This document shows positions 1 through 35,298 of a stretch of 64,000 nucleotides of DNA, piece after piece. The translations under genes were made by a program, and so were the position numbers. Source of the DNA: a virus; the IMG/VR virus record IMGVR_UViG_3300028581_000020, positions 1 through 64,000 of that record. One strand, written 5' to 3'. The notes under the pieces were generated by a model that was not told the DNA's origin, searched no databases, and worked only from the letters and a program-made list of their open reading frames with translations. The stretch's first letter is position 1. Every line of letters starts with the position of its first letter.

Positions 1-489
1 GGACTTGATGCACCTAAGAAGTTCAATTGGTATTTGAGTCCTAATGAAGCTGTTTTGGCGGCTATGTGGTCCAAGGTGGGGTCCGAGGTGTGGTCCGAGG
101 TGTGGTCCGAGGTGGGGTCCAAGGTGTGGTCCAAGGTGGAGGCTGAAATTTGCTGGGGACAACACGATGCTGGATTTCTTTCAGAATATGCCTTCTATCT
201 GAAAGAATTGGGATTAAAAGAATGTGAACGATTGACTCCCCGTATGGAGCTTGCTAAAGAATGTGGATGGTTTATTCCTTATAAAGACGAAGTATTTATT
301 TCTGAGAAGCCTTGTGAAATTCATTTGAACCATAAAGGACAGCTTCATAATCCCGTAGGTCCCGCTCTATTGTATAAAAATGGTTATTGTCTGTATTCGA
401 TTGATGGAAATGTTCTAGATGATAAAGAAGGATTTAAAATTACTAAGTCAAATTTAATCAATTCGGAAGTGAAGGATTTATTAAAATGA
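1..489 (+). CDS. DUF6745-like protein, 5'-truncated by the window, carrying the C-terminal tag
   Basis: Frame is open from base 1 (GLDAPKKFNWYLSP...). WSEV-type repeats are followed by WGQHDAG...CGWFIPY...LHNPVGPAL, the pattern I recall for DUF6745. Ends KSNLINSEVKDLLK*. Confidence 0.7.
   Translation, partial: GLDAPKKFNWYLSPNEAVLAAMWSKVGSEVWSEVWSEVGSKVWSKVEAEICWGQHDAGFLSEYAFYLKELGLKECERLTPRMELAKECGWFIPYKDEVFISEKPCEIHLNHKGQLHNPVGPALLYKNGYCLYSIDGNVLDDKEGFKITKSNLINSEVKDLLK
67..138 (+). repeat. 12-bp tandem repeat x6, (T/G)GGTCC(A/G)AGGTG, encoding (W/G)S(K/E)V
   Basis: Read directly from the sequence. Confidence 0.95.
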
Positions 490-665
490 ACACAGAAATT
501 AAAAAGCCCGCACAACTCTTCATCATGGAAGCTTCCGCCACACGAAAACTTTTTGGTGAGGCGTCAGACGAAAAGAAACGCGCCCACGCCAAAAGAGTAA
601 TTGACTGGCATAAACAAGTTCGTTATAACAAACTTCGTCATCTCATTGAGAAACTTCGTGGATAA
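486..665 (+). CDS. Hypothetical basic protein, 59 aa (not in ORF track)
   Basis: MNTEIKKPAQ...IEKLRG*. ATGA overlap upstream and TAATG overlap downstream. Confidence 0.7.
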   Translation: MNTEIKKPAQLFIMEASATRKLFGEASDEKKRAHAKRVIDWHKQVRYNKLRHLIEKLRG

Positions 666-886
666 TGAAACATAAATTAGCACGCCGATATATTGACCAA
701 AACGGAAACGAGCGCTTGCTTGTATTTCATCGGGACTCTCCATATGGTCCCCAATGGCTAGACGAGCAAGGCGACGTTATTACCATTGATACCGTGAAAG
801 ACGTTAACGGAGGCTTGCATAATCCTTGGGATTTTGTTACTATCATAGAAGAATTCTATGTAACCCCGGAGGTATCGGACGAGTAA
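665..886 (+). CDS. Hypothetical protein
   Basis: ORF coupled to the upstream gene. Confidence 0.65.
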   Translation: MKHKLARRYIDQNGNERLLVFHRDSPYGPQWLDEQGDVITIDTVKDVNGGLHNPWDFVTIIEEFYVTPEVSDE

Positions 887-936
887 CGAATTATACAGAC
901 AATAAGCTTATAAATATTAATTAGAAAAGGAGTAAT

Positions 937-1119
937 ATGATCCTGCTTAAACTTGTTCATAACGATACAAATAAATCTGTAGGGAACGTTTTGAGAATTC
1001 GACAAGACGGAGATAAACGTTTGTTGGTTCTTGACAATGGGTCTGAATTGGAACTTAATGTTAAAAACCGCCTTATTTATCGTCTGGAAAAAATCAATAC
1101 CCGCGCTTTTGAAAACTGA
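937..1119 (+). CDS. Hypothetical protein
   Basis: AAGGAG SD upstream. Confidence 0.7.
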   Translation: MILLKLVHNDTNKSVGNVLRIRQDGDKRLLVLDNGSELELNVKNRLIYRLEKINTRAFEN

Positions 1120-1130
1120 TAGGACTAATA

Positions 1131-1379
1131 ATGGAAACTATCGAAGAACTTAAGAACCGAATACGAGAACTAGAAAAGCTTGTCTCCGAATTGTCACGAC
1201 AAGGACGTGAAATGTATTCAGACGAACAACTAAACCATGCCTCCGATAGATATGTACAAATGAATAATAGAAAAACTGCGGACCGGGAATCTTTTGTTGC
1301 CGGATTTGGATTTGGCGTTCCCGCAGGCGAGAAATGGGCATATCGACAAGGCTTTGAAGCTGGAAAAAATTCAAAATAA
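1131..1379 (+). CDS. Hypothetical protein with N-terminal coiled coil
   Basis: AGGA SD. IEELKNRIRELEKL heptads. Confidence 0.7.
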   Translation: METIEELKNRIRELEKLVSELSRQGREMYSDEQLNHASDRYVQMNNRKTADRESFVAGFGFGVPAGEKWAYRQGFEAGKNSK

Positions 1380-1381
1380 CA

Positions 1382-1409
1382 TTGTAATTTAAATTGTATT
1401 TGTTATAAT
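1382..1409 (+). promoter_or_regulatory. Sigma70-like promoter with extended -10, upstream of MoxR/vWA
   Basis: TTGTAA-N16-TATAAT with TGn, then AGGAG SD. Confidence 0.6.
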
Positions 1410-1432
1410 AATAAAATAGGAGAAAATAAATA

Positions 1433-2578
1433 ATGAAATCTTCCGAAATTCACGCAATTCTTGACCTCGCATTTAAGGTCCGCGCCGCAGGCGAACGGTT
1501 TATCCCTTGCTTTGCTGGCGATCCGGGCTTGGGAAAAAGCTTTAATGCTCAACAATGGCAGAAAGACAAGGCTAAAGAAGTTCCCGGCTTTGGTTTTCTT
1601 GACATTCGTTTGGCTCTTCGCGAAGGCCCGGACTTGACCGGCAAACCCACGACGGAGCTTCAGAACGGAAAACTTCGCACTATTTCGGCGCTTCCGGGAT
1701 TTTGGCCCACCGATCCCAAAAGCTCGGGGCTTCTTCTTTTGGAAGAGCCCAATCGGGCAAATACTTGGGTAACGAATTGTATCATGCAACTTTTGACGGA
1801 TCGTAAAATGGATGTTGGGGAAGCGGAACCTTATGTTCTCCCTGAGGGTTGGATGATGGCCGCGTGTATCAATGAAGGGACCGCCGTTGACGTTTCGCAA
1901 ATGGACGCGGCGCTTCGCAATCGCTTCTCTATGTTTGAAATTAAATATGACCGTGTGGAGTTTGTTGACTATATGGAGTCAACGAATTGGCACACAAATG
2001 TTATTAACTTTGTGAAAGACGGAACTTTCCAATTCACTAGCGCCGATGAAATTGGTGAAGGCAAAACCTACGTCTCTCCTCGCACGCTAGAAGTTATTTC
2101 TAATCTTGAGAAGCAATATATTCAAAAGAACGCAACGTTTCATAACACGATTGTTACTAGTATTCTTGGGAAAGAAATTGGGAGCATGTATCATAAGTTT
2201 TGTTTTGACGAATCTCCCATCTCCTATGAAGACCTCACGAAGCGCAAAAAGACCGCTATTAAGCGCCTTGAACGCTTCTCGGGAGTTAACGGCGATCCCG
2301 TTCGTGCCGACATCCTTTCGCTAACGGTACAAAACATTGTCGATAACTTCCCTAATCCCTCGTCGGAAAAAGACCGGAAACTCCTTTATGAAATTTCCCG
2401 TATTATTCCCCTTGACCAATCGGTCGAAATGCTTAAGACGGTATTCAGCAAGGATACAAATAAAGATCTGAAGTTCAAGTCTTTGGAAGCTGAAGATAAG
2501 GAACTCTATGACCTTGTTCTTCGCAAGATGAAAGGTCAATCTGAATACACCAAAGGAACCGAGAAGGATAAGAAATAA
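1433..2578 (+). CDS. MoxR-like AAA+ ATPase
   Basis: Walker A GDPGLGKS, Walker B LLLLEEPNRA, DAALRNRF arginine finger, SPRT sensor. Adjacent to a vWA gene. Confidence 0.85.
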   Translation: MKSSEIHAILDLAFKVRAAGERFIPCFAGDPGLGKSFNAQQWQKDKAKEVPGFGFLDIRLALREGPDLTGKPTTELQNGKLRTISALPGFWPTDPKSSGLLLLEEPNRANTWVTNCIMQLLTDRKMDVGEAEPYVLPEGWMMAACINEGTAVDVSQMDAALRNRFSMFEIKYDRVEFVDYMESTNWHTNVINFVKDGTFQFTSADEIGEGKTYVSPRTLEVISNLEKQYIQKNATFHNTIVTSILGKEIGSMYHKFCFDESPISYEDLTKRKKTAIKRLERFSGVNGDPVRADILSLTVQNIVDNFPNPSSEKDRKLLYEISRIIPLDQSVEMLKTVFSKDTNKDLKFKSLEAEDKELYDLVLRKMKGQSEYTKGTEKDKK

Positions 2579-3984
2579 TGCCTAATACAAACGCAATGAC
2601 AGATAAGGGAGCGGGACTTGATCCCGTTCCCGTCCCTTCCGAAATTGTGCCGAAAAGGGAGCGCACCCCTCCTGACCTTAAACTCGCCAAAGAGAATATG
2701 GCGTGGGCAACTTCGACGGTTCTCAATGCGTCGGGATTTGGCTTTTATGGCTATATTCTGCAAGGTATGCCAACTCGGTTTACAACGGGACTTCCCACCG
2801 CTGGCGTTGCGTTCGATCCCCGCACTAAGCAATTTAACTTGTATGTCAATCCTTATTTCTGGAATGAATCTCTAGACAAGCTTCAGCGCGTTGCGGTTCT
2901 TATCCATGAAATGCTGCACGTAACCCACAAGCATGTTTATTATAATCTAAAGGGTCATCAAGAAAAGGACCGACTTAACATTGCCATGGATATGGTGATT
3001 AATCAGCAAATTTTGCATATGCCGAAAGAAGCCATCTTTGTCGAGAACTTCAAAGACAAAACCGGCAAACTTTTCCCCAAGAATCAAACTGTAGAAGTTT
3101 ATTACGATCTTTTGGAAAATGACGCTCAAGTCTTTCAACGCTCTCAGAATGGTCAAGGCGAAGGGGAAGGGAAAGACAAGCAAGAAACTAGCGGCCAAGG
3201 AATCCCTGGAGATGTTGAGCACAACGGACAAAGGGGAAAATGGAAACGTCTTGGCGATCTAAAAAAGGAATTGGGCTGGGATCAACATGAATGGGGTCTT
3301 GACTCTCAGGACAATCAAAGCCTTAAAGAAAAGCTCGAAGGACTTCAGGACTTGTTTAAGCGTGCGGAACATAAGGCATCGTTTGACCACTCTATAGATA
3401 AAAACGCTTTTGAAGACTTCCTTAAAGAAATTAAGTCCCGCATTCAAAAACTTGACGCACGCGGCATTTTGCTTAACGCCTTAAGAAAGTCCATGCCTTC
3501 GAAGTTCGTTAAGAAATCTTGGTGGAGAGAATCTAGCCGTTATGGCGACGATGCTCCGGGAAGTCTCAGAGCCCCAATGCCCAAAATTGCTGTACTTGTT
3601 GACACTTCAGGCTCTATGAGCATCGAAGAAATTAACGAATTCTTTGCTGTAACGAATCAATTCATGACGGTAGGCATTGACAAAGCGTTCCTTGGACTTT
3701 TCCATACCGATATGTATTATGACACGATTGTCAAGAAAAACTTCCAGCTTGCCAAAACTAACATTCGGGATAAAGTACAAGGCGGCGGGACTGAATTGAC
3801 GACAGCCTTTGAATGGGCAAAGAAAAAGAATCCGGATATGATTATTGTATTGACAGACGGATATTGGTCTATGCCGAATATCAACGTTAAGAAGCTGCCT
3901 GAATGCTGTTTTGTCATCTCGAAACAAGGAACAACGGATCATCCCATGAAGGGTAGTGGACGAACGGTGAAATATGACCCGTGA
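2578..3984 (+). CDS. HExxH metallopeptidase-like plus vWA domain protein (DUF2201-type)
   Basis: LIHEMLHV, NIAMDMVIN, MIDAS DTSGS, GGGT, VLTDG. Confidence 0.85.
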   Translation: MPNTNAMTDKGAGLDPVPVPSEIVPKRERTPPDLKLAKENMAWATSTVLNASGFGFYGYILQGMPTRFTTGLPTAGVAFDPRTKQFNLYVNPYFWNESLDKLQRVAVLIHEMLHVTHKHVYYNLKGHQEKDRLNIAMDMVINQQILHMPKEAIFVENFKDKTGKLFPKNQTVEVYYDLLENDAQVFQRSQNGQGEGEGKDKQETSGQGIPGDVEHNGQRGKWKRLGDLKKELGWDQHEWGLDSQDNQSLKEKLEGLQDLFKRAEHKASFDHSIDKNAFEDFLKEIKSRIQKLDARGILLNALRKSMPSKFVKKSWWRESSRYGDDAPGSLRAPMPKIAVLVDTSGSMSIEEINEFFAVTNQFMTVGIDKAFLGLFHTDMYYDTIVKKNFQLAKTNIRDKVQGGGTELTTAFEWAKKKNPDMIIVLTDGYWSMPNINVKKLPECCFVISKQGTTDHPMKGSGRTVKYDP

Positions 3985-4186
3985 TAGGTATTTTCGATTT
4001 ACAAAAGGCCCAAATAGAGGTTCTATTGTATATAAATTAACCGCCGAAGGTTTGTATTATAAAAAAACTGATACCTTGGTCTGGAGAGAATCTGCGGCAT
4101 CGGTAGAACAAATGGAATCCACACTAATGACCGAAGTCACAAAAGAGTATGAAGTACAAAACGAAATTAAGGAGTTGCTTAAATGA
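3974..4186 (+). CDS. Small tagged protein
   Basis: Ends KEYEVQNEIKELLK*. Confidence 0.85.
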   Translation: MTRDRYFRFTKGPNRGSIVYKLTAEGLYYKKTDTLVWRESAASVEQMESTLMTEVTKEYEVQNEIKELLK

Positions 4187-4492: not shown

Positions 4493-4717
4493 ATGGACAT
4501 TGGCATTGTTGAAGGTGAATGGTATATGAACCGCGAGACAAAAAACTGCTATAAGGTACTGCATTGGCCTGGATTTTATAGCATGTCTTTCCCTGTATCC
4601 ACCGATGGCAAAAATATAATCACATATAAAACATCTCTTATAAGGAATTGGGTCCACCTTCCTAATTACGAAAAGACCTTGACAATACAATCGGAAGTTA
4701 ATAAGCTATTGGAATGA
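4493..4717 (+). CDS. Small tagged protein (HLPNY subtype)
   Basis: Ends HLPNYEKTLTIQSEVNKLLE*. Confidence 0.85.
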   Translation: MDIGIVEGEWYMNRETKNCYKVLHWPGFYSMSFPVSTDGKNIITYKTSLIRNWVHLPNYEKTLTIQSEVNKLLE

Positions 4718-4932
4718 GAGATATTGCGGTCTTTAAAGACATTGATAGAGAAAACCCCTGGACATGGGTGTATCAAAAAGGAGAACTTGTGGAGGTATTT
4801 TCAAATACAGACCGATATCCTGCCGATACTAAAATGTGGCCATATGATAAAATGCGGGAGTATTCGGGTTTTATTAAAGATATAACAAAAGAATATCTTA
4901 TTGACAAAGAACTGAAGGACCTATTAAAATGA
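4714..4932 (+). CDS. Small tagged protein
   Basis: Ends KEYLIDKELKDLLK*. Confidence 0.85.
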   Translation: MRDIAVFKDIDRENPWTWVYQKGELVEVFSNTDRYPADTKMWPYDKMREYSGFIKDITKEYLIDKELKDLLK

Positions 4933-5144
4933 AAGTACAAGCTGGGCAAGTCTGGCTTTGGAAAAGATTTGATCTTTCGGGAGTAAAATGTCGTATTCTA
5001 GAAATTAGAAATCAAACTACAGTTATTGAAAATTGCGAATTAAAAACTAAACACATAATTTTTACAAATTATCTTGCTGATAAATGTTGGGAACTATCAA
5101 AATCGTCTGAAATTAAAGACGAAATAGAGGATCTATTGGCATGA
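4929..5144 (+). CDS. Small tagged protein
   Basis: Ends KSSEIKDEIEDLLA*. Confidence 0.85.
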   Translation: MKVQAGQVWLWKRFDLSGVKCRILEIRNQTTVIENCELKTKHIIFTNYLADKCWELSKSSEIKDEIEDLLA

Positions 5145-5380
5145 AGTTCTATAAAGGAATGATTTTACGAGGAAAAGGCCCTTATAAACACCTCACGTTT
5201 AAATTGCTTAATATAGAAAAACAAACCTGGAGAGTTTTAGAGGACAATCGAGAATGCGGATCGAGAAACGGGAAAACTGAGGTTTATAGCGTCTCAGAAA
5301 TCGAATGGGGAGACAATCAATGGGAAGTTATTACAAAATCCTTCGAGACTAGTAAAGAATTGAAGGATATTCTAAAATGA
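5141..5380 (+). CDS. Small tagged protein (paralog of 28277)
   Basis: MKFYKGMIL... and ends KSFETSKELKDILK*. Confidence 0.85.
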   Translation: MKFYKGMILRGKGPYKHLTFKLLNIEKQTWRVLEDNRECGSRNGKTEVYSVSEIEWGDNQWEVITKSFETSKELKDILK

Positions 5381-5832
5381 ATCTTCCTAAAGCAATTTGT
5401 GTTGATATTGATGGCACAATCGCGAATATTGACCATCGTCTTCACCACGTCCGAAGAAAGCCAAAGAACTGGCCGGAATTCTTTAAGGAAATGTCAAAGG
5501 ATTCTGTAAACGAATGGTGTCAAAATTTAGTTTATTTGTATTTCAATGCCGGTTATAAGATTATCTTTGTATCCGGACGCGGCGAGGAATATCGCCGCGC
5601 AACAGAAACTTGGCTTGACGAAAAAGCACAAGTATATCATACTGCCTATGAGCTTTACATGCGTCCAGAAAAAGACTATAGGCAAGACGACATAATTAAG
5701 GAAGAAATCTACTTGACGAAAATCAAAGATAAGTATAATGTTGAAGTTGTAATTGATGATCGGCCACGGGTTTGTCGCAAATGGCGGGAGTTGGGACTTC
5801 TAGTCCTTCAATGCAATGACAAAGAATTTTAA
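5377..5832 (+). CDS. HAD-family phosphatase, like the Pnkp/PseT 3'-phosphatase domain
   Basis: DIDGT, VSGR, LYMR, IDDR motifs. Confidence 0.85.
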   Translation: MNLPKAICVDIDGTIANIDHRLHHVRRKPKNWPEFFKEMSKDSVNEWCQNLVYLYFNAGYKIIFVSGRGEEYRRATETWLDEKAQVYHTAYELYMRPEKDYRQDDIIKEEIYLTKIKDKYNVEVVIDDRPRVCRKWRELGLLVLQCNDKEF

Positions 5833-6013
5833 GTACTATCGAGAATCTTATGGTCACGTTTATAAATACGACGGCGATAATTTGATCGCCGTAAAGCCAA
5901 TGGGCAAAGAATGGAGAGATCCACATCTTCCATTAAATGTAGTGGACTATGATTGGGAAGATGTCACAAAAGAATACCAAATTCAACAAGAAGTCAAGGA
6001 TTTATTGAAATGA
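5816..6013 (+). CDS. Small tagged protein
   Basis: Ends KEYQIQQEVKDLLK*. Confidence 0.85.
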   Translation: MTKNFKYYRESYGHVYKYDGDNLIAVKPMGKEWRDPHLPLNVVDYDWEDVTKEYQIQQEVKDLLK

Positions 6014-6231
6014 ATTATCGCTATTTTTTATCTCTAGATCCTAATACTATCATTAGACGCCATTCGGATTTGTCGGGAATGGAAATGCGGCTATATCATG
6101 ACAAAAACGACGAATGGAGGCCTTCACAGTTAGATATTAAATACATAGAAGCTATGATAAGGTGCGGATCAATGAAAGACGCGACAAAAGAATTGGAAGT
6201 CCTTGACGAAATCAAGGATATTTTGTCATGA
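6010..6231 (+). CDS. Small tagged protein
   Basis: Start moved to the ATGA overlap. Ends KELEVLDEIKDILS*. Confidence 0.8.
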   Translation: MNYRYFLSLDPNTIIRRHSDLSGMEMRLYHDKNDEWRPSQLDIKYIEAMIRCGSMKDATKELEVLDEIKDILS

Positions 6232-6440
6232 AGCTGAAAGTTGGCGAATATTATAGGTCAATAGGCGCTCACTACGTATTTAGGGTTGATAGTTTCGATA
6301 GAAATCAAGATTATTTTGTTCAATTCGAAACAGATGGCAGATTCGAAAAATGGAAAGATGGTTTAAATGATTACGAACATCTTCCCAATTACAAAAAATC
6401 AATAGAAATAAAGGATGAACTCGATAAGCTTTTGGCTTGA
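6228..6440 (+). CDS. Small tagged protein (HLPNY subtype)
   Basis: MKLKVGEYY... and ends KSIEIKDELDKLLA*. Confidence 0.85.
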   Translation: MKLKVGEYYRSIGAHYVFRVDSFDRNQDYFVQFETDGRFEKWKDGLNDYEHLPNYKKSIEIKDELDKLLA

Positions 6441-6482: not shown

Positions 6483-6740
6483 ATGAATACGAGAATTCGG
6501 TACTTTGACAATGACGGTGTTTTGGAATCTAGCGGAATGGATGGCGCAAACAATAAAGTGTTGCGTGTTCGGCTTAATGACAATAAATTCTCTGTATTAG
6601 ATCAAAATGACGAGATTTTGGCGGCAGGGGAAGCGAAAACCTCTACGTCCGCAAAAATCAAGGCCAAAGAGTCGCTTAAAAACTTTGGCGTTGTCTTTTC
6701 TGACGAAAAGCGTCAAAGAAAGTCTTCCGATCCCGTATGA
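6483..6740 (+). CDS. Hypothetical protein
   Basis: GGAGG SD before the ATG at 6483. Confidence 0.75.
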   Translation: MNTRIRYFDNDGVLESSGMDGANNKVLRVRLNDNKFSVLDQNDEILAAGEAKTSTSAKIKAKESLKNFGVVFSDEKRQRKSSDPV

Positions 6741-6970
6741 AGAAAGTCCGGCTTGGGCAGATTTTTAAGGCCAAAGAGGGATCTATATATTACGGCGCAA
6801 CTTGGAAATGCATTAATGTCAGAAATGGAAAATTCCAAGAGATGTCAAATCCTAAAGATTGTATCGAAGATCCAGTTCACAGCTTTATCAGAGATTGGGA
6901 AGAAAGCGATTGGATTGACGTGACGAAAGAATATGAAGTTAATGAAGAAGTTAAGGATTTGTTGAAATGA
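6737..6970 (+). CDS. Small tagged protein
   Basis: Ends KEYEVNEEVKDLLK*. Confidence 0.85.
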   Translation: MKKVRLGQIFKAKEGSIYYGATWKCINVRNGKFQEMSNPKDCIEDPVHSFIRDWEESDWIDVTKEYEVNEEVKDLLK

Positions 6971-7002
6971 CTTCATTAACATTCAGTCGAGCTTTGCAAT
7001 GA
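6967..7002 (+). other. 11-codon relay micro-ORF MTSLTFSRALQ
   Basis: ATGA overlaps at both ends. Near-twin at 26079. Confidence 0.6.
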
Positions 7003-7259: not shown

Positions 7260-7447
7260 TTGTAATGGTGTCGCTATTGTGGCTTTTGAGTGTTACCTGT
7301 GCTCTATATATTTGGGCGAAAAATTTTGATGAAATTCAATATATCGCACTATTTTGTGCGATTATTGGCGGCCCCGTAACGCTTCTAGTTTGGGGAATGA
7401 TGTTTCTAAATGGCAGGAACCACGTTGTCTGGAGACGGAAGAAATGA
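7253..7447 (+). CDS. Small 2-TM membrane protein
   Basis: Two hydrophobic segments and a basic C-terminus. Confidence 0.7.
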   Translation: MLIVMVSLLWLLSVTCALYIWAKNFDEIQYIALFCAIIGGPVTLLVWGMMFLNGRNHVVWRRKK

Positions 7448-7653
7448 TGCCTAAAGTCGGAGAAATTTGGAGATTTTGCAACTCTAAAAATTGGAGGATT
7501 CATAAAATTGACTCCAAATGGGCAACACTTGAATCTCCCGATACTGGCGAATTTGTCCAACAATACAACACTAGATATTTCGAAACTCCCGGCTTATGGA
7601 AACACACAAAACATTCTATTATTGACAAAGAAGTGAAAGATCTGCTATCCTAA
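7444..7653 (+). CDS. Small tagged protein
   Basis: Start at ATGA overlap (MMPKVGEIW). Ends KHSIIDKEVKDLLS*. Confidence 0.8.
   Translation: MMPKVGEIWRFCNSKNWRIHKIDSKWATLESPDTGEFVQQYNTRYFETPGLWKHTKHSIIDKEVKDLLS
7622..7651 (+). promoter_or_regulatory. Sigma70-like promoter inside tag-coding DNA
   Basis: TTGACA-N18-TATCCT with TGn. Next ATG at 7658 has no SD. Confidence 0.55.
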
Positions 7654-7657
7654 TCCC

Positions 7658-7933
7658 ATGACACTTATTCAATTCTTTATTGGTCTTTTTGTCTTTATAT
7701 TTGGATATTTGTATTTCCAATCTGTTCTTAAAGACCTTCGCAAAAACGTAATGCCTGGCGATGTTGTTGGTATTCGTTTTGGCGATTATGTCGTCAATAG
7801 AAAAATTCGTGCTATCTCCGGAACGACAGTTGATGTTTTAAGCCTCAAAGGCAATAATGTAATTACTGTTGACAAATCCAATATCTATGTTTGGGATAAA
7901 TTTGCCATTGAGGATGAGAAAATTGATGTCTGA
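7658..7933 (+). CDS. Single-TM protein with YajC-like architecture
   Basis: N-terminal TM, then PGDVV...IRAISGTTVDV...ITVDKSNI. Confidence 0.45.
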   Translation: MTLIQFFIGLFVFIFGYLYFQSVLKDLRKNVMPGDVVGIRFGDYVVNRKIRAISGTTVDVLSLKGNNVITVDKSNIYVWDKFAIEDEKIDV

Positions 7934-7988
7934 TTTGATTTATAAATTTGCAGAAATACAAAAAGAAGTAAAGGATTTACTATCATGA
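7926..7988 (+). CDS. 20-aa tag-only micropeptide (not in ORF track)
   Basis: MSDLIYKFAEIQKEVKDLLS*. ATGA overlap with nrdA. Confidence 0.7.
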   Translation: MSDLIYKFAEIQKEVKDLLS

Positions 7989-9712: not shown

Positions 9713-9787
9713 TTTCCCTATCAATATATTACTACCAGAATCAAATCTTTAGAAATATCCCAAGAATTACAGGACATATTGAAATGA
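9713..9787 (+). pseudogene. Orphan tag remnant in frame behind the nrdA stop
   Basis: FPYQYITTRIKSLEISQELQDILK*, with no ATG/GTG/TTG ahead of the tag. Confidence 0.65.
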
Positions 9788-25825: not shown

Positions 25826-26082
25826 AGCAAAGAAAGCACATAGTAGTTGGTGGAAGGTATTTAAACACGGGTATCTTCGATGATGGTTATTTTTTTCATC
25901 ATGTCGAAGTTGAAGGGTTTTCTGGTAATGTCATCATTGGTAAATATTATTACGGTGATTCATTAAAGAATTCTTCATTTACAAACGTAACGCACTTAGA
26001 CTTTAATGATGAAGATCTTGATGCTCTCGTTTCCATGAAAGCTTTAGAAATTGATATTGAAGTGAAGGATCTTCTAAAATGA
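25822..26082 (+). CDS. Small tagged protein
   Basis: Ends KALEIDIEVKDLLK*. Confidence 0.85.
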   Translation: MKQRKHIVVGGRYLNTGIFDDGYFFHHVEVEGFSGNVIIGKYYYGDSLKNSSFTNVTHLDFNDEDLDALVSMKALEIDIEVKDLLK

Positions 26083-26114
26083 TTTCACTAACGTTCAATC
26101 GAGCTTCGCAATGA
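26079..26114 (+). other. 11-codon relay micro-ORF MISLTFNRASQ
   Basis: ATGA overlaps at both ends. Near-twin of 6967-7002. Confidence 0.6.
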
Positions 26115-27619: not shown

Positions 27620-28277
27620 TTTTAACTTGGTAAATTATGATACCGATAGTATTATGGTTTGTAAACCCGATGGATCGGCGTTTGATTCGGAAGAACAATC
27701 CCAACTTCTAATCGAGCTTAATTCTCTTTTCCCCAAAAGGATTAAATGGGAACCCGATGGGTATTTCCATACGGTAGCTATCATTAAAGCTAAAAACTAT
27801 ATCTTGTACGATGGAAAGAAGTTGAAAATCAAGGGAGCCGCATTAAAAGCAACAACAAAAGAACCTGCCCTACAAGAATATATTAAAGAAGTCATTGACT
27901 GTATTATTGAAGGTCGTTATAATCATAAAGAAGTCTATGATAAATACGCTAAAGAAATCATGTCGTTAACCGATATTAAACGCTGGGCGACGAGAAAGAC
28001 CTTGACTAATACTGTATTTGCTGGCGAGCAAACGACGGCAAAGAAAGTGCTTGACGCCATTGACGGAACTGAATATACTGAAGGAGATCGTGCTTATTTC
28101 TTCTTTAAGCCCGACGAATCGTTAGAACTAGTTGAAAACTTCACGGGAGAATATCATGTTGACAAACTTTTGGAAAAGCTGTTCAAAACTTCTTCAATTT
28201 TTCACACGGTCATTCCGAAAGACACCTTCCCAAACTACAAACTCAAACGAAATAAAATACTGTTATCCAGTTTATAA
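27606..28277 (+). CDS. Family B DNA polymerase, C-terminal part (motif C, thumb)
   Basis: NYDTDS, KAKNY, IKG. Has its own AAGGA SD. Confidence 0.85.
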   Translation: MSNHDFNLVNYDTDSIMVCKPDGSAFDSEEQSQLLIELNSLFPKRIKWEPDGYFHTVAIIKAKNYILYDGKKLKIKGAALKATTKEPALQEYIKEVIDCIIEGRYNHKEVYDKYAKEIMSLTDIKRWATRKTLTNTVFAGEQTTAKKVLDAIDGTEYTEGDRAYFFFKPDESLELVENFTGEYHVDKLLEKLFKTSSIFHTVIPKDTFPNYKLKRNKILLSSL

Positions 28278-28516
28278 TGATTTTCTATAAGGGAATGATT
28301 TTAAAAGGAATTAATAGCATGGAAGGATTAGTTTTTAAGTTATTAAATATTAGTTCTCATGAATGGGAGCTTATTCAATCAACACGTATTGGTCCATCAC
28401 ATAGACCATATATAGTTTCGTATCCTATATCCGACCGAGAGTGGCCCGAAACAGAATGGATTGATGTAACAAAAGAATATGAAGTTGCTGACGAAATTAA
28501 GGACCTCTTGAAATAG
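28277..28516 (+). CDS. Small tagged protein
   Basis: MIFYKGMIL... and ends KEYEVADEIKDLLK*. Confidence 0.85.
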   Translation: MIFYKGMILKGINSMEGLVFKLLNISSHEWELIQSTRIGPSHRPYIVSYPISDREWPETEWIDVTKEYEVADEIKDLLK

Positions 28517-28517: not shown

Positions 28518-29471
28518 ATGTTCCGAGACAATCTCCCAAAACCCGGCAATACAACAAAGATCAACGTCTTAATAACAGACGGCGGTCTTGGAGATCTTGC
28601 TTGTTCCCTCGTTCCCGTAAAATACATGCTCGATAATATGTTCTGGTTGAATCCTCAAATCTTTGTACCTGATTATTTATTTGACTTCGCAAAGAACGTC
28701 TTACCTTCAAAGGCAAAAATCTTCCGCTATTCCGAAGCCTCTCGTTATTATAAGGAAAAACTCCCGGCTGTATCCACGCAATGGAAAACCAACCATACGG
28801 CAATGCGTACACATCCGGTCGATTATGCATTCCACATGCTCCTTGACAAAACTCCAACGCCAGAGGAACGGAATTACCTCAAGGTGTCGCCGGTTGATAT
28901 TTCCGTTTTCAATCTCCCGACAAAATACGTCTGCATTGGAGTCGGACACACAAACCGCACTAAGGAATTCAAACCCGATGTTGTTAATGGAATTGTGACT
29001 TATTGTCTCTCCATGGGATACCTTCCCGTATTCCTTGGAAAAAAGGAAGAGCCCACAGGACATGAGAAACTCGGCTTAAAGGCTGAGATTTCTAATGACA
29101 TTGATTATACGAAAGGCCTTGATTTTACTGGGAAAACGACCATTTTGGAAGCCGCGAGTATTATCAACGGAGCGAAATGTTATATTGGAATGGACGGCGG
29201 ACTTGTTCATATCGCAGGATTTACAGATGTTCCGATCATCGCTGGTTATACGTTTGTGAACCCTAACCATATTATGCCTATTCGTAATGATATTCTAGGT
29301 CACAACGTACAAAATATAGTCCCGCCCCCATCATTAGGGTGTCGATTTTGTCAAACAAATTGGTCTATGTTTTATGACCATTCGTTCTTTGATTGTTATT
29401 ACGATGATTTTGAATGTGTTAAACAATTGACTCTTGACAAATGGATAGAAAAGCTGGAGAATGTATTATGA
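28518..29471 (+). CDS. GT9 (heptosyltransferase-like) glycosyltransferase
   Basis: GGLGD, DFTGKTTI, IGMDGGLVHIA, CRFC. Confidence 0.8.
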   Translation: MFRDNLPKPGNTTKINVLITDGGLGDLACSLVPVKYMLDNMFWLNPQIFVPDYLFDFAKNVLPSKAKIFRYSEASRYYKEKLPAVSTQWKTNHTAMRTHPVDYAFHMLLDKTPTPEERNYLKVSPVDISVFNLPTKYVCIGVGHTNRTKEFKPDVVNGIVTYCLSMGYLPVFLGKKEEPTGHEKLGLKAEISNDIDYTKGLDFTGKTTILEAASIINGAKCYIGMDGGLVHIAGFTDVPIIAGYTFVNPNHIMPIRNDILGHNVQNIVPPPSLGCRFCQTNWSMFYDHSFFDCYYDDFECVKQLTLDKWIEKLENVL

Positions 29472-29827
29472 TTGATTTTTTAAAAGGTATTTTTGGTATC
29501 TCTGCAAATAGTCAACAAATCCAGTCCTTACAATCGGGTGCTATTGCACGACAACAACTGGGCTCTCAAGGAACCAAAAGTAAGTTTTCTGTATATACGA
29601 CACCAGGTTCCGAAACATTCTTTCCATATTCACAAGGAAGTATTTATTATGATCCAGAACGTCTTTTGCCGCTTCATCAAAGAAAAAGGGTGTCTCTTCT
29701 AAAGCTTCAACGCCGAGCGGCAGAAGTCTCCTCTCTTATTACTGAAAAACAGGACGATCTTATTAAATTAAACGCTCGAATTAAAGAAATTTCTATTCAA
29801 GAAGAGCTTAAAGACCTATTGAAATGA
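29468..29827 (+). CDS. Tagged coiled-coil protein
   Basis: Ends KEISIQEELKDLLK*. Confidence 0.8.
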   Translation: MIDFLKGIFGISANSQQIQSLQSGAIARQQLGSQGTKSKFSVYTTPGSETFFPYSQGSIYYDPERLLPLHQRKRVSLLKLQRRAAEVSSLITEKQDDLIKLNARIKEISIQEELKDLLK

Positions 29828-30090
29828 CCTTCACAAAAGGACACGTTTATTACTCTAATTGTAATACCTATGGTATTGCGTGGGAATGTTTAGAATCAAC
29901 GATAGTCGCCCACGTACGGTGTCAGGCCGTAGAGTTTACTGGAAATGTTCCCGATCATATTACAGTTAGACTATTTGACCCACAGACAATCGTATTTGGC
30001 CTGCATACAGACCACATGAAAAATATTACGGAATACGCATCAAAAAAAGCCTGGGAAACTAGAAACGAAGTGAAAGATCTACTTGCTTGA
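29824..30090 (+). CDS. Small tagged protein
   Basis: Ends KAWETRNEVKDLLA*. Confidence 0.85.
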   Translation: MTFTKGHVYYSNCNTYGIAWECLESTIVAHVRCQAVEFTGNVPDHITVRLFDPQTIVFGLHTDHMKNITEYASKKAWETRNEVKDLLA

Positions 30091-30293
30091 AATTTAAACT
30101 TGGTGATCTTATTAGCCCTAAAAATATGTCGGTAGTCTATAAAGTAATGTCAATTGATCCTGTCATGAACAAAATAAAATTACTGACTCCAGATCTCAGA
30201 ATACTTACGCTTTATAATGATAATACAGAAGAACACTTTGAAATTGCTAAAGAACAAGTTGTTTCTGATGAAGTGAAGGATCTTTTAAAATGA
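30087..30293 (+). CDS. Small tagged protein
   Basis: MKFKLGDL... and ends KEQVVSDEVKDLLK*. Confidence 0.85.
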   Translation: MKFKLGDLISPKNMSVVYKVMSIDPVMNKIKLLTPDLRILTLYNDNTEEHFEIAKEQVVSDEVKDLLK

Positions 30294-30493
30294 TTGTAAA
30301 TTATAAAACATACGGACAATTGGTATCAGTATTCAAAGGAACATATGAAGCTCCATGGAAAACCGAGACAGACGTTTCCCGGCTTTTTGAATATAGAAAC
30401 ATGCCGGGGATGTCAACGGAAAATACCGAGTTCATTGACAAACGAATTAAGGAATTAGAAACGTCACAAGAAGTGAAGGAACTATTGAAGTGA
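30290..30493 (+). CDS. Small tagged protein (paralog of 30490)
   Basis: Ends KRIKELETSQEVKELLK*. Confidence 0.85.
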   Translation: MIVNYKTYGQLVSVFKGTYEAPWKTETDVSRLFEYRNMPGMSTENTEFIDKRIKELETSQEVKELLK

Positions 30494-30702
30494 GCATTAC
30501 TTATATGCTTAAGGCTACATACGGTAATCTTATAAATCTAATTCCGGAAGGCGTTTATTTATTCTCCATTGAAAGAGAAACCTCATTAGAAAAACTTAAT
30601 AATATGTTAACAAATGAACGCTCTGAAGATATTTTAGATCGCGTTCGTAAAAGAATCAAACACATTGAAACCCAACAAGAAGTGAAGGATTTACTCGCTT
30701 GA
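30490..30702 (+). CDS. Small tagged protein
   Basis: Ends KRIKHIETQQEVKDLLA*. Confidence 0.85.
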   Translation: MSITYMLKATYGNLINLIPEGVYLFSIERETSLEKLNNMLTNERSEDILDRVRKRIKHIETQQEVKDLLA

Positions 30703-31346: not shown

Positions 31347-31362
31347 GGATCTTTTGAAATGA
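31339..31362 (+). other. 7-codon tag remnant MDKDLLK*
   Basis: ATG GAT AAG GAT CTT TTG AAA TGA, overlapping the next ATG. Confidence 0.55.
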
Positions 31363-32000
31363 GTAAAATCAAATGTATTCTCCCTTGTGCAGGACTTGGA
31401 ACGCGAATGGGAATGAAAAATAACGAAGCCAAAGAACTTCTATTAGATCCAACGTATCAAACTCCAATTATCGACTATTCGCTTAAGATCTGTAAAGATC
31501 AAGGATTTACGCCAGTTATCATCTCTCGCAAGGAAAAACGTGAATTTAATCGTTATGTCTCAGGAAAAGCTGAATTGCTTATTATTGAACCCCGAGGAGA
31601 ATGGATGGACTCTATACTACAATCGAAAGATTTGTGGGAAGAAAAAAACATCCTAATTCTCCCCGATACAAGATTTAGGCCTATTGACGAGGCTTCAAAG
31701 CTCGTTAAAGATCTGGATTTCTGTAATCTGTCCTTTGGTCTTCATTTTGTAAAAGATACACAAAACTGGGGCATTGTCAAGCAAATAGATATGAAAACTT
31801 ATGATGTCATTGAAAAGCCTAAAGACAACATCTTCTGTTCTACGGCTTGGGGAATCGTCGCTTTTAAGCCAGAACAAGGCGAACAACTATTCGAAGGCTT
31901 TCGGACAAAGAACCAATGGTTTAGGGTTGAAAACGCTTCTTGTGCTTATCTTCAAAGTTTTAAAGATATAACGAGAACCGGAAAGATCGAAGATGCTTAA
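31359..32000 (+). CDS. Sugar-phosphate nucleotidyltransferase-like protein
   Basis: ILPCAGLGTRM, KELL, LPD, EKP. Confidence 0.8.
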   Translation: MSKIKCILPCAGLGTRMGMKNNEAKELLLDPTYQTPIIDYSLKICKDQGFTPVIISRKEKREFNRYVSGKAELLIIEPRGEWMDSILQSKDLWEEKNILILPDTRFRPIDEASKLVKDLDFCNLSFGLHFVKDTQNWGIVKQIDMKTYDVIEKPKDNIFCSTAWGIVAFKPEQGEQLFEGFRTKNQWFRVENASCAYLQSFKDITRTGKIEDA

Positions 32001-32076
32001 AGTTGACGATACTGGGATTCCTTTTACATATATCGGAAATGAAGTTGAAAAAGAAGTCAAGGACTTGCTTAAGTAA
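31993..32076 (+). CDS. 27-aa tag micropeptide (not in ORF track)
   Basis: MLKVDDTGIPFTYIGNEVEKEVKDLLK*. TAATG overlap. Confidence 0.7.
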   Translation: MLKVDDTGIPFTYIGNEVEKEVKDLLK

Positions 32077-32432
32077 TGAAACTCAAATACTTCGATCTGG
32101 CAAGACAGCTCTCTGAGAAATCCGACCACCACACGTATAAAATTGGTTGCGTCATTGTTCGTAAAAATCGCATAATTGGAATGGGCTGTAATAAAATGAA
32201 AACCCATGTGGCTTCTCCACACAAATGGAAACATATTCACGCAGAATTTGATGCCATTCTTTCGACTCGAAATAAAGAGGACCTTGTTGGTGCGAGCGTT
32301 TATGTATTCCGCGCAAGGAAAGACGGAACGAACGCCATTTCAAAACCGTGTCCATCTTGTAAAAATATGTTGCAATCTGTAGGTGTCTCTGATATCTTCT
32401 ATACAGAGGACGGTGGATATGGGAAAATTTAA
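32076..32432 (+). CDS. Zn-dependent cytidine/dCMP deaminase family protein
   Basis: HAE and PCPSC motifs. Confidence 0.85.
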   Translation: MKLKYFDLARQLSEKSDHHTYKIGCVIVRKNRIIGMGCNKMKTHVASPHKWKHIHAEFDAILSTRNKEDLVGASVYVFRARKDGTNAISKPCPSCKNMLQSVGVSDIFYTEDGGYGKI

Positions 32433-32637
32433 AATAGGGCAATTGATTGAGAGTTCTGCGCATCCCGGTAATATTACTCTAGATAAAATAATTACGGACA
32501 TTAAAGAAGAAATTTATATTTGTAAAAATGTAGTAAATGGTGCTCAATTGTACCTTCCTTTTAGTTTTGTCGATAACCGTTACACTTTACATAAATCTTG
32601 CCAAATTGAAGAAGAAGTGAAGGATTTATTGAAATGA
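32419..32637 (+). CDS. Small tagged protein
   Basis: MGKFKIGQL... and ends KSCQIEEEVKDLLK*. Confidence 0.85.
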   Translation: MGKFKIGQLIESSAHPGNITLDKIITDIKEEIYICKNVVNGAQLYLPFSFVDNRYTLHKSCQIEEEVKDLLK

Positions 32638-32858
32638 GCTTTAGAGTGGAAATTGGGATGGTATTTCGAGTTCCGCAAGGACTCCAAAGCAGCGGTCCCT
32701 GGCACTTCGAATACCTAGGCAACGGTAACTTTAAAAATCTAGAAATTAATAAAATTATTAGCTATGATCCAGACCATTCTTTGTGGGAATCTTATTATGT
32801 TCCAAACTATAAAAAAACTAAGGAGATTAAAGATGAAATTTCTACTCTTCTGTCTTAG
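32634..32858 (+). CDS. Small tagged protein (PNY subtype)
   Basis: Ends VPNYKKTKEIKDEISTLLS*. Confidence 0.8.
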   Translation: MSFRVEIGMVFRVPQGLQSSGPWHFEYLGNGNFKNLEINKIISYDPDHSLWESYYVPNYKKTKEIKDEISTLLS

Positions 32859-33255: not shown

Positions 33256-33257
33256 TT

Positions 33258-33509
33258 ATGATGCAAGTTATTACCGTATATAACGGAACGGTTCTAAAAA
33301 ATAAAAATACCGGGACGAAGTGGACCTTTGTTATTGAACCTAATGAGATGTATTGGCTTCGGAATGGGACACATAAATATCCAGTAAACAGCGATGAAGT
33401 TACAAAACGTGAAAATTCCGATCAATACGAGGCGTCAATTCCTGATTTTTTTATCGACATTACAAAAAGCAATGAAATTGAAAAAGAAGTGAAAGACTTG
33501 TTGTCTTGA
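33258..33509 (+). CDS. Small tagged protein
   Basis: Ends KSNEIEKEVKDLLS*. Confidence 0.85.
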   Translation: MMQVITVYNGTVLKNKNTGTKWTFVIEPNEMYWLRNGTHKYPVNSDEVTKRENSDQYEASIPDFFIDITKSNEIEKEVKDLLS

Positions 33510-33718
33510 AATCAGCGGATAAAATTGTAGCGGTCAACGATTCCAAAGGTATAACGTATTATGCCTTTAATTTTGACAGTCAAATGTATTGTGCTTATTT
33601 TATGGACTCTGTAAATTTCTATTCCTTTCATAGCGGCTGGCTTCCTATAAATGACGAGGCCCGGAGAATTCTTAAACAACACGAAGTTAATGCTGAGATC
33701 AAGAGTCTATTAAAATGA
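33506..33718 (+). CDS. Small tagged protein
   Basis: Ends KQHEVNAEIKSLLK*. Confidence 0.85.
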   Translation: MKSADKIVAVNDSKGITYYAFNFDSQMYCAYFMDSVNFYSFHSGWLPINDEARRILKQHEVNAEIKSLLK

Positions 33719-33963
33719 AATTTAAAGTCGGTGAATACTACGAAATAACCGAAGACATGCAGGGACACGCAGTATGCCACAAACGCGGCTCGGTTTTTAA
33801 AGTTATGGAATCAACTTCAGAAATTGATAGATTCGTAATCAGATTTATTGATGGAGAAAAAACAACCGGGCCTTGGTATGACGGAATGTCTTGCTATAAG
33901 CACCGCCCAGAACTAAAAAAGGGCGACCAAGTAAAAGAAGAACTTGACAATCTACTAGCGTGA
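33715..33963 (+). CDS. Small tagged protein (paralog of 6228)
   Basis: MKFKVGEYY... and ends KGDQVKEELDNLLA*. Confidence 0.85.
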   Translation: MKFKVGEYYEITEDMQGHAVCHKRGSVFKVMESTSEIDRFVIRFIDGEKTTGPWYDGMSCYKHRPELKKGDQVKEELDNLLA

Positions 33964-33972
33964 TGATAATAT
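33944..33972 (+). promoter_or_regulatory. Sigma70-like promoter starting inside tag-coding DNA
   Basis: TTGACA-N17-TAATAT with TGn. ATG at 33981 has no SD. Confidence 0.6.
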
Positions 33973-33980
33973 AGTTCTAT

Positions 33981-35045
33981 ATGAAATTAGCATTTGATGA
34001 CGTTCTTATTAGTCCCGGATTTTCCCATATCAACTCCCGTAAAGACGTTGACCTTTCCTCCAACCTCGGAAGCTTGGGATTGAAACTCCCAGTAATCTCG
34101 GCTCCGATGGATACTGTAACGGGACCTGCGATGGCAAACGCCCTATCCAAGGTTGGCGCTGCCGCAGCCCTTCATCGCTTTCAAAGTATTGATGATAATT
34201 TGAAGCAGTTTAAAGCTTGTGAAGGAAAAGTCATTGTTTCTGTAGGCTTGAACGATTGGGAACGAACCAGCGCTCTTTATGATGCTGGTGCTGAATATTT
34301 CCTATTAGACATTGCTCATGGAGCGCAAATGCAGGTTGTAGATTGGGTATCTGCCTTTCGGCAGAAGTATTCTGGAGTATGGCTAATGGTTGGGAATTTT
34401 GCTAATGCGAATCAAATCCACACATTTATGACACATACAAATAAAGTAGATAGTTGGAGGATAGGAGTGGGCTCAGGATCGAGTTGCGAAACAAGAGTTA
34501 AGACCGGATGTGGTTTGCCGACTCTTTCAAGCCTTCTCTCCATCAAAGATTATAATTCATCAAATTGGAAGCATCAAATCGAGAATATTGTTGCTGATGG
34601 CGGAATTAAGAATCCTGGGGACGTTGCAAAGTCCTTGGCCGCAGGAGCTTCTGCTGTAATGGTCGGAAAACTTCTTGCTGGAACTGATGAAAGTCCTGGT
34701 GAAATTACAGAAGTCGGAGGATGGTTTGCTCGACCTGATAAATACGCCGTCGAGAAAGAAACCCGAGTTGACGGCATTAAAGTGAAACAATATAGAGGCT
34801 CGGCTTCCGCCGAAAGCTATAAAGATCAAGGAAAAATCCAAGGCTATATTACGACAGAAGGAGTGTCCTTCACAATTCCGTATAAAGGCCCAGTATCTTC
34901 TGTGTTAACCGACATTGAAGGTGGCCTTCGTTCTGCCCTCACCTACGCGGGCGTTTCGAACCTGAAGGATTTTAGACAGTCTGCTGAGCTTGTACAGATT
35001 ACGAATGCCGGAGCTTTAGAAAGCAAAGCACATGGCAAAATTTGA
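33981..35045 (+). CDS. guaB: IMP dehydrogenase / GMP reductase family protein, no CBS domains
   Basis: FDDVL, SAPMDTV, DIAHG, GVGSGSSCETR, ADGGI, YRGSAS. IMPDH versus GMPR is not resolved. Confidence 0.8.
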   Translation: MKLAFDDVLISPGFSHINSRKDVDLSSNLGSLGLKLPVISAPMDTVTGPAMANALSKVGAAAALHRFQSIDDNLKQFKACEGKVIVSVGLNDWERTSALYDAGAEYFLLDIAHGAQMQVVDWVSAFRQKYSGVWLMVGNFANANQIHTFMTHTNKVDSWRIGVGSGSSCETRVKTGCGLPTLSSLLSIKDYNSSNWKHQIENIVADGGIKNPGDVAKSLAAGASAVMVGKLLAGTDESPGEITEVGGWFARPDKYAVEKETRVDGIKVKQYRGSASAESYKDQGKIQGYITTEGVSFTIPYKGPVSSVLTDIEGGLRSALTYAGVSNLKDFRQSAELVQITNAGALESKAHGKI

Positions 35046-35298
35046 GGTAGGACAGCAATATAGGTTTTCTCCAAAAGGAGTTTATAATCTCACGTTTGAA
35101 GTTTTATCTAAAACTGATGATGGTAGTTATAAATGTATTACGTTGACATTTGAAGCTACTGGAGCGACGCCTACGCCGACTGAAATAGCCGTTCCCGGAA
35201 AAACCTGGACATTTACACCGACTTCTTATATTGAAGAAATTTCAACATCACTAAAAGCCGAAGAAGTAATGGCAGAAATAAAAGAGCTTCTGTCATGA
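35032..35298 (+). CDS. Small tagged protein (last member)
   Basis: MAKFEVGQQY... and ends KAEEVMAEIKELLS*. Confidence 0.85.
   Translation: MAKFEVGQQYRFSPKGVYNLTFEVLSKTDDGSYKCITLTFEATGATPTPTEIAVPGKTWTFTPTSYIEEISTSLKAEEVMAEIKELLS

Follow-up and report, generated by a model that had tools for sequence, protein, structure and literature searches.

Known systems and the locus under study

Short peptides at the C-terminus of otherwise unlike proteins are known to address them to a single reader, as in the ssrA degron recognised by ClpX, the EEVD ending of Hsp70 and Hsp90 bound by the carboxylate clamps of TPR proteins, and the Legionella Dot/Icm signal. In this work an ending of comparable size is described in a virus genome. 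The window analysed is the first 64 kb of the 104,527-bp IMG/VR virus record IMGVR_UViG_3300028581_000020, and in its first 35,298 positions genes for small proteins repeatedly terminate in one 14-residue peptide, K-x3-[IVT]-x2-E-[VIL]-x2-[LI]-L-x-stop (hereafter the tag, with residues numbered backwards from the stop codon). We take this ending to be a constant, predicted C-terminal helix on small early proteins of the phage, a set that is specific to this lineage and has undergone massive expansion. It differs from the three examples above in its motif and in its variable last residue, and readers of those kinds were not found among the phage proteins.

Two other groups of systems invite comparison. 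Poxvirus ankyrin-repeat proteins form large sets of paralogs in which variable binding domains are joined to a constant C-terminal PRANC/F-box-like module that docks on one hub; these proteins act in eukaryotes through a larger module with a known partner, the Skp1/cullin ligase, and are unrelated in sequence to the tag. The capsid targeting sequence of phage T4 and the cargo peptides of encapsulins and microcompartments are short common peptides, often helical, that address proteins to one assembly. The T4 signal is N-terminal and cleaved, whereas the tag is C-terminal and its genes lie among those for replication and nucleotide metabolism rather than in a virion module. Shared terminal address peptides are thus known as a kind, while a description of them in phages was not found in the literature searched.

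The closest described system is the bacterial vWA-MoxR peptide-processing system, in which vWA domains have been proposed to capture a peptide for remodelling by MoxR and zincin peptidases are paired with small, fast-diverging proteins having a conserved C-terminal peptide, for example FxSxx-COOH (Kaur et al. 2020, PMC7159879). A MoxR ATPase with an intact nucleotide-binding site, a vWA domain with its metal ion-dependent adhesion site (MIDAS) and a zincin domain with its HExxH motif are all present in the window, and they too adjoin small, rapidly diverging proteins whose conserved part is a C-terminal peptide (36 genes here). The peptide itself is different, as K-x3-[IV]-x2-E-[VI]-K-D-L-L-x is not of the FxSxx, RxD, acidic-run or FtsH-associated type. 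The published case belongs to bacterial conflict and comprises a single precursor gene, a third core component and, in many instances, also a radical-SAM enzyme (PMC7159879), whereas here about 40 precursor-like genes are found in a phage, the zincin and vWA domains are fused in one protein, and cleavage is putative. The known types of third component (VMAP, iSTAND, FtsH or beta-propeller) were not detected in Pfam and PHROG scans of the window proteins, which included no dedicated profiles for these. A phage MoxR/metallopeptidase-vWA pair has been reported from group 2.2 jumbo phages, for which a role in virion assembly was suggested and tags were not mentioned (Iyer et al. 2021, PMC7824862). 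The pair in our window (1433-3984) belongs to this same family (PHROG 1297 and 1314), many carriers of which have no tag.

The C-terminal tag

Every stop codon in all six frames was scanned with a stop-anchored regular expression of the motif, in which position -14 could be K or any residue. On the plus strand, 40 reading frames carried the 14-residue motif at the stop, with ends between 489 and 35298, compared to about 0.13 stop-anchored matches expected by chance. No genuine copy was present on the minus strand, where the sole match has a stop codon inside, and the same scan of the 35.3-104.5 kb part of the record returned zero matches. The plus-strand frames hold 43 occurrences of the motif, 40 of which are directly followed by the stop. 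In every copy the tag ends one residue ahead of the stop and it is never internal; the core pattern E[VIL]K[DE][LI]L was not found away from a stop in any plus-strand frame.

The scan recovered 36 live tagged genes, about half of the 77 genes tiled in region 1-35298, together with four decayed copies, and so upheld the initial annotation, which had listed some 40 small proteins sharing one exact-length C-terminal tag. Its residue counts were also reproduced: K is found at -14 in 39 of 40 tags, the exception being a short open reading frame (mini-ORF) ending at 32076 that has Ile, and positions -10, -7, -6, -3 and -2 fit the motif in all 40. At the last position Lys predominates (20 tags), followed by Ala (nine), Ser (eight), Glu (two) and Phe (one), and the average column identity among the tails is 50%. 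Tagged proteins range from 65 to 162 residues, the median being 79.

The same tagged proteins occur on about ten near-identical contigs, the longest of 124 kb, so that the array is no artefact of assembly. Outside this phage, exact and degenerate tag patterns in IMG/VR and the JGI metagenomes retrieved lone matches of chance level with no second tag at the same loci, and profile searches with the family, among them one against 1.84 billion representative proteins, returned only the proteins of this phage and a spurious match to tandem acyl carrier protein repeats. A profile of the tails gave only chance matches to TPR helices among PDB sequences. Megablast with 8 kb of the sequence retrieved nothing from GenBank phages, searches for related loci via the helicase and the portal found no close relative, and literature keyword searches found no published description of such a tag.

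Selection on the peptide and on the gene junction

At leucine positions -3 and -2 all six Leu codons occur; the first and third bases vary, the second is fixed, and Phe never appears. When nucleotides were shuffled within columns 5000 times, no more than 0.12% of the shuffles had as many motif-compatible residues at -6, -3 and -2 as the real tags. Selection at these positions is therefore at the peptide level, as the initial annotation had concluded, with a nucleotide-level constraint added to part of the tag.

Part of that constraint comes from the next gene. The codons for K-D at positions -5 and -4 (AAGGAT) form its Shine-Dalgarno site, 9 nt ahead of an ATG, GTG or TTG, and an AAGGA site stands at identical spacing in front of untagged genes. 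The stop of the tag is TGA in 33 of 40 copies, most of which overlap the start of the next gene (NTGA), the other seven being TAA or TAG. Lys -14 is encoded by AAA in 34 of 39 tags. The DNA of the tag thus also serves to start translation of the gene behind it, and selection acts at both levels. Positions K-14, I/V-10, E-7, V-6, L-3 and L-2 are left unexplained by this dual coding.

For six tags no start codon lies within 6 nt (gene tiling gave eight of 40, but the tags ending at 32076 and 32637 are in fact coupled). In the uncoupled tags ending at 6440, 32858 and 33963, K-D has been lost and all other positions are retained. Because uncoupled tags keep the rest of the motif, its anchoring at the stop reflects more than translational coupling. 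A comparison of coupled and uncoupled tags for the presence of a Shine-Dalgarno site, in which the tiling scored the ends 32076 and 32637 as uncoupled, gave no significant association. Lys -5 is also kept in 11 tags where its AAA codon removes the AGGA core.

A separate observation concerns two of the uncoupled junctions. A 30-nt element, TTCAYTAACRTTCARTCGAGCTTYGCAATG, occurs exactly twice (6972-7001 and 26084-26113), a match of this kind being seen in none of 100 shuffles. Both copies come after an uncoupled tag, and their last three bases are the ATG of a gene outside the family, namely an 86-residue open reading frame and the DNA polymerase gene, respectively.

Protein bodies and predicted structure

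Pfam and PHROG searches of the tagged proteins identified no family besides one truncated DUF6745, which bears out the initial statement that the tag is absent from recognisable enzyme and virion genes. With the tails removed, few pairs of bodies were similar by BLAST, and iterative hidden Markov models failed to unite them. An N-terminal strand-Gly motif (M-K-x-K-V-G-[DEQ]-x-aromatic), a pattern picked post hoc, was found in 27 of 36 tagged proteins versus five of 34 untagged small proteins. Most tagged proteins therefore look like one hugely expanded, fast-diverging family, and their earlier description as simply diverse does not hold. The tag nevertheless sits on at least four kinds of body: a predicted barrel, a membrane protein, a helical protein (low-confidence model) and the DUF6745 fragment.

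An AlphaFold2 model of the 6737-6970 product, built on a paralog alignment of 28 members, shows four strands and, at residues 63-76, a helix corresponding to the tag (predicted local distance difference test score 93-95 in the helix, mean 78.5). The model gave weak matches to SH3/KOW/Tudor-like barrels (NdhS, Spt5 KOW, FeoA and Tudor; Z score 4-5, template-modelling score about 0.5). In this one modelled member the tag is thus predicted with confidence to be a C-terminal helix, preceded by what may be a small barrel of SH3-like type, in line with the earlier proposal of a helix that ends at the free C-terminus. On a helical wheel K-14, L-3, I-10, V-6 and L-2 share one face, with E-7 and E-11 flanking it and K-5 pointing away. 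The position of K-5 off the conserved face would fit its conservation for the Shine-Dalgarno site rather than for an interface. A homodimer prediction for the same protein scored 0.01, which weighs neither for nor against binding. Searches of the ESM Atlas retrieved only unnamed clusters of small phage proteins, with scores that make them leads at best.

A putative common partner

The tag is real, of exact length, never internal, selected as a peptide and predicted to be helical, and it is found on at least four bodies, which together favour a common handle over a plain element of a fold. The bodies diverge far more than the tag, and this, along with its conserved charged surface residues, fits an interface. 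We give about an even chance to the reading that the tag serves all these proteins as a common handle, which one putative partner would recognise at the free C-terminus. The initial annotation had proposed a docking or sorting signal on a library of interchangeable proteins. This is still the best-supported reading of a tag that has proved real, anchored and selected as a peptide, with the amendments that the partner is putative and that the bodies belong mostly to one family.

The best candidate for this partner is the phage's own MoxR/zincin-vWA pair, a putative link that we regard as doubtful but worth naming. The first gene (1433-2578, plus strand) encodes a MoxR-type AAA+ ATPase (AAA_5, PHROG 1297) with the Walker A sequence GDPGLGKS. 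The second (2578-3984, plus strand) encodes a zincin metallopeptidase-vWA fusion (DUF2201_N and DUF2201, PHROG 1314) with HEMLH at residue 110 and the MIDAS sequence DTSGS at residue 342. Both lie directly upstream of the densest tag array. Delivery to an AAA+ machine, one of the functions suggested earlier, thereby gains a concrete candidate, though one that also occurs in tagless phages. No TPR, PDZ or similar reader was found among the untagged proteins. A ClpP-like gene (41906-42814), considered as a protease for the tag, was rejected because it encodes a head-maturation protease.

Under such a mechanism, the conserved helix face (K-14, I/V-10, E-7, V/I/L-6, L-3 and L-2) and the free C-terminus would provide the grip for one partner, which could hold all of the variable proteins and handle them as a group. 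The MIDAS site of the vWA domain would capture the tail, the MoxR ATPase would remodel the captured protein and the zincin peptidase might clip it, while the variable barrels would be the working, target-binding ends.

Comparable endings were looked for in a small sample of cultured phages, picked via homologues of the zincin-vWA protein of this phage. In a control of 88 unrelated loci (609 kb), the largest cluster reported by the tail-cluster detector had three members. The closest phage homologues by score (77-81 bits) belong to the AR9/PBS1 and Va1/phiKT1024 clades, both of which have tail-sharing arrays, whereas more distant full-length homologues (59 bits) have none. In Planktothrix phage Pag-Yong1 (69% GC) equally large low-complexity clusters appeared in the internal control, leaving no usable signal.

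In the phiKT1024/Va1 clade, the zincin-vWA gene is directly followed by genes for 13 small, mostly unlike proteins that terminate in [HY]-P-E-x-[FL]-I-stop. Throughout the genome of Vibrio phage phiKT1024 (OM249648.1, 191 kb), the pattern P-E-x-h-h-stop is found in 72 forward reading frames, one reverse and none in the control. The endings of these 72 can also be written P-E-x-[FLM]-[IV]-stop, and their bodies are mostly unlike. The tail cluster of this phage has 86 members, about a quarter of its genes. In 32 of the 72 the tag overlaps the next start, 27 of the 72 end in ATATGA, and all three stops are used. The P-E-x-F-I-stop tag of phiKT1024, Va1 and Pv27 resembles the one described here in being carried by many (72-86) mostly unlike small proteins on one strand, anchored at the stop, with a last codon that often forms an overlapping ATGA start, in phages that have a zincin-vWA gene and a MoxR homologue. 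It differs in its unrelated sequence, in the genome that carries it, that of a 191-kb myovirus, and in being spread genome-wide, and because it contains Pro it cannot form one continuous helix. The genome paper of Pv27 makes no mention of it. A wider scheme is conceivable, to which we would assign a rather low probability. Some large phages may encode dozens of hypervariable small binders with a genome-specific C-terminal address peptide (K..I..EVKDLLx here, PExFI in phiKT1024), read by their own MoxR/zincin-vWA proteins, which would capture, remodel or clip them; a whole library of effectors for host takeover or counter-defence would in this way be deployed under joint regulation.

Weighing the alternatives

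Several observations weigh against a common handle or against the pair as its reader. Codon usage in part of the tag is not free. Lys -5 is AAG in 22 of 33 cases, compared to 37% in the genome (p=8e-4), and Val -6 is GTG in 14 of 22, compared to 9% (p=4e-10), giving GAAGTGAAGGAT; both point to a constraint on the nucleotides. The earlier claim that codons vary synonymously accordingly stands for Leu -3/-2 and Ile/Val -10 and is true only in part elsewhere, as at Val -6 and Lys -5. (The G of the GTG at -6 stands 15 nt ahead of the next start, which is too distant for a Shine-Dalgarno core.) Conservation of K-5, D-4 and the last codon is accounted for by dual coding of the start region, as is the exact anchoring in part. 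Amphipathicity of the helix is no more than moderate, with a mean hydrophobic moment of 0.37 in the tags versus 0.26 in shuffled ones. As about 27 of 36 bodies share the N-terminal motif, much of the pattern could be due to common descent. With regard to the pair, the phiKT1024 and AR9 cases form a biased sample, since they were found by starting from the pair. In phiKT1024 the MoxR homologue is encoded elsewhere in the genome, apart from the zincin-vWA gene, and with about a quarter of the genes tagged, adjacency to the pair means little. In Bacillus phage AR9 (KU878088.1; 21283-27544) six genes right after the AAA/zincin-vWA pair (g030, g031 and g033-g036) end in K-x-Y-E-A-x-x-I-L-E-x-L-stop; they comprise five clear paralogs and a 56-residue mini version, g033, and are an ordinary paralog family. 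The pair is also present in AD45-P1 and SonariX, where no tail cluster was found in the whole genome, and in Vibrio phage 2.275.O, where none was found within 20 kb of it. Its occurrence in tagless phages makes the pair far more widespread than the tags.

The main rival, a helix of structural nature in a paralog family held constant by its junctions, is one to which we attach a real but minor share of the probability. It needs no common partner. A single barrel-plus-helix gene would have been duplicated in tandem, the helix being a fold element that caps the barrel, and its hyper-conservation would come from the Shine-Dalgarno, stop and start DNA, perhaps with short-tract recombination homogenising the junctions, while the odd bodies would be new sequence swapped in ahead of a retained 3' end. 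The enrichment of the N-terminal motif among tagged proteins, the clear paralog pairs and the barrel-plus-helix model agree with this, as do the AAG and GTG biases and the NTGA overlaps. The tag and the N-terminus of the next gene appear as one conserved junction block, remnants persist exactly where the start region of the next gene is still supplied (e.g. 9713-9787), and the DUF6745 body is cut at profile position 88 of 206, just ahead of the tag. Yet a fold element is seldom far better conserved than the core of its fold, the invariant charged K-14 and E-7 lie outside the Shine-Dalgarno site, and the saturation of the Leu codons makes recent homogenisation unlikely. Moreover, the membrane and helical bodies keep the tag without a barrel to cap, the uncoupled tags lose nothing besides K-D, and the analogous tag of phiKT1024 is anchored though just 32 of 72 copies overlap a start.

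The three remaining explanations fare less well. A C-terminal degron or timer, by which a host protease (ClpXP/ClpAP, Lon or a Tsp-like enzyme) or an adaptor would read the free LL-x-COOH and clear early accessory proteins together, is in our judgement unlikely. The strict C-terminal anchoring and the confinement to early-region genes would suit it, and so would the length of the tag, since the ssrA tag has 11 residues with separate adaptor-binding and protease-binding parts. The last residue of our tag is variable and mostly Lys, unlike the conserved non-polar LAA-COOH, the tail is net acidic or neutral, and profile searches found the tag in no other phage or bacterial protein, which would be odd for a signal of a conserved host machine. 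We consider it less likely still that the unit acts as nucleic acid only (a coupling junction, a cassette-shuffling recombination site or the operator of a translational repressor) and that the peptide has no function. The shared Shine-Dalgarno spacing, the prevalence of overlapping TGA stops and the bias toward GTG, AAG and AAA speak for it, but untagged genes are coupled equally well, the column shuffles show that codon combinations avoid non-motif residues, the Leu codons vary at the first and third base around a constant second base, and K-5 stays Lys in the 11 tags whose AAA destroys the AGGA core. The least probable of all, to the point of being nearly negligible, is an action in the ribosomal exit tunnel, whereby the last 14 residues would slow release at UGA so that the ribosome restarts on the overlapping AUG. 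Fourteen residues approximate the span between the peptidyl-transferase centre and the constriction of the tunnel, and peptides of the TnaC type need a UGA stop at a set distance, which together with the exact distance from the stop and the preference for TGA gives the idea its appeal. Against it stand the six tags without a start within 6 nt and the seven with TAA or TAG, all of which keep the motif, the lack of similarity to known arrest peptides, and the phiKT1024 tag, which occurs with each of the three stop codons and overlaps a start in fewer than half of its copies.

Tagged genes and their genomic neighbourhood

All live tagged genes are on the plus strand and, unless other evidence is named, were recognised by the tag scan and gene tiling. 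The first (64-489) has a truncated DUF6745 body, matching profile positions 9-88 of 206, in front of the tag; its start is uncertain, lying at the contig edge. Ahead of the DUF6745 fragment this protein bears an N-terminal tandem peptide repeat, WSKVGSEV WSEV WSEV GSKV WSKV. Behind the MoxR/zincin-vWA pair follow 3974-4186, a member of the HLPNY subfamily (4493-4717), 4714-4932, 4929-5144 and 5141-5380, the last being a paralog of 28277-28516 (both by tag scan and body comparison). Next are 5816-6013, 6010-6231 and 6228-6440; the latter and its paralog 33715-33963 are both uncoupled from the next gene and without K-D. The modelled gene with the predicted small barrel and helix 63-76 (6737-6970) and 7444-7653 come after these.

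Further downstream, 9784-10032 precedes two genes with a GTG start (10029-10280 and 10277-10531), followed by 12957-13196, 14145-14375 and 14372-14653. Two longer members encode 146 residues with a different body (14942-15382) and 162 residues, mostly in long helices according to a low-confidence model (16709-17197), the latter directly preceded by 16485-16712. A further paralog pair (18276-18515 and 19553-19795) was established by tag scan and body comparison. The gene at 25460-25825, with a membrane-protein body, overlaps 25822-26082. The 119-residue product of 29468-29827 is without the N-terminal strand-Gly motif and has no Pfam match; it is followed by 29824-30090, 30087-30293 (TTG start), 30290-30493 and 30490-30702 (GTG start). 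The remaining genes are 32419-32637 (tag scan), 32634-32858 (uncoupled and without K-D), 33258-33509, 33506-33718 (TTG start), the above-mentioned 33715-33963 and, as the last one, 35032-35298.

The four hidden copies of the initial annotation were all located, also on the plus strand, and are decayed. A membrane-anchored gene (7658-7988) has its tag (7944-7988) reachable only via a +1 shift at the A-run 7919-7922. A remnant of 24 codons (9713-9787) lies in frame straight after the TAA of the ribonucleotide reductase large-subunit gene and retains the AGGA site and ATGA start of the next gene. An HLPNY-type gene of 70 codons (12738-12950) contains an in-frame TAG at 12834-12836, and in the 27-codon mini-ORF (31993-32076), which has Ile at -14, the N-terminal strand is fused straight to the tag. 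A seven-residue remnant that had also been listed was looked for and not located. A search for tRNA genes that could provide a suppressor of the in-frame TAG or TAA found none encoded, which makes readthrough by suppression unlikely, and a suppressor tRNA was set aside. Beyond the array, an untagged 52-residue protein (39084-39242) ends in ...KTWAKDLLERL-stop, with K-D-L-L three residues before the end, either by chance or as what is left of a strongly decayed tag.

The tagged genes are interspersed with untagged early and replication genes, and none of the enzymes recognised by Pfam or PHROG is tagged. These neighbours include both ribonucleotide reductase subunits (alpha and beta), an intein-bearing RNA ligase, polynucleotide kinase and phosphatase genes, ThyX, an ERF recombinase, a DnaB helicase, a split family-B DNA polymerase, GMP reductase, dUTPase and dCMP deaminase. 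Capsid loading, which had been suggested as one role of the tag, is unlikely because its genes lie among these early and replication genes and not in a virion module.

Some of the neighbours have features of their own. The RNA ligase gene (10528-12738; OB-fold and ligase domains) is interrupted by an intein with a LAGLIDADG endonuclease. The phosphatase and kinase parts of polynucleotide kinase-phosphatase are encoded by separate genes at a distance of 11 kb (5377-5832 and 17203-17625), and with the RNA ligase they form a tRNA repair set like that of T4. Two reading frames share the family-B DNA polymerase, namely 26111-27619 (exonuclease and start of the polymerase domain) and the overlapping 27606-28277 (remainder). 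In the early region, 20203-20949 encodes a 248-residue protein with a hydrophobic N-terminus and collagen triple-helix repeats, and the adjoining gene (20946-22055) a 369-residue protein with a hydrophobic-looking N-terminus and no family match.

The record itself is composite, with positions 62-102 kb at 55-60% GC versus about 40% GC in the tag-bearing part. The high-GC part of about 40 kb, which sits within the tag-bearing phage, encodes terminase, primase and helicase along with a T7-like portal that has 45% identity to Pelagibacter podophages, and is either a nested element or a chimeric assembly. Family searches gave no matches for structural genes of the tag-bearing, 40% GC part.

Significance

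Small early proteins are the largest pool of unexplained phage genes and a main source of host-takeover and anti-defence factors. As an analogous tag is present in the cultured Vibrio phages phiKT1024, Va1 and Pv27, the question of a common handle can be tested at the bench. If it is true that in some phages a third to half of these proteins share one handle, a single partner would explain dozens of orphan genes, the tag would be portable for engineering, and a client set would be assigned to the widespread phage MoxR/zincin-vWA pair.

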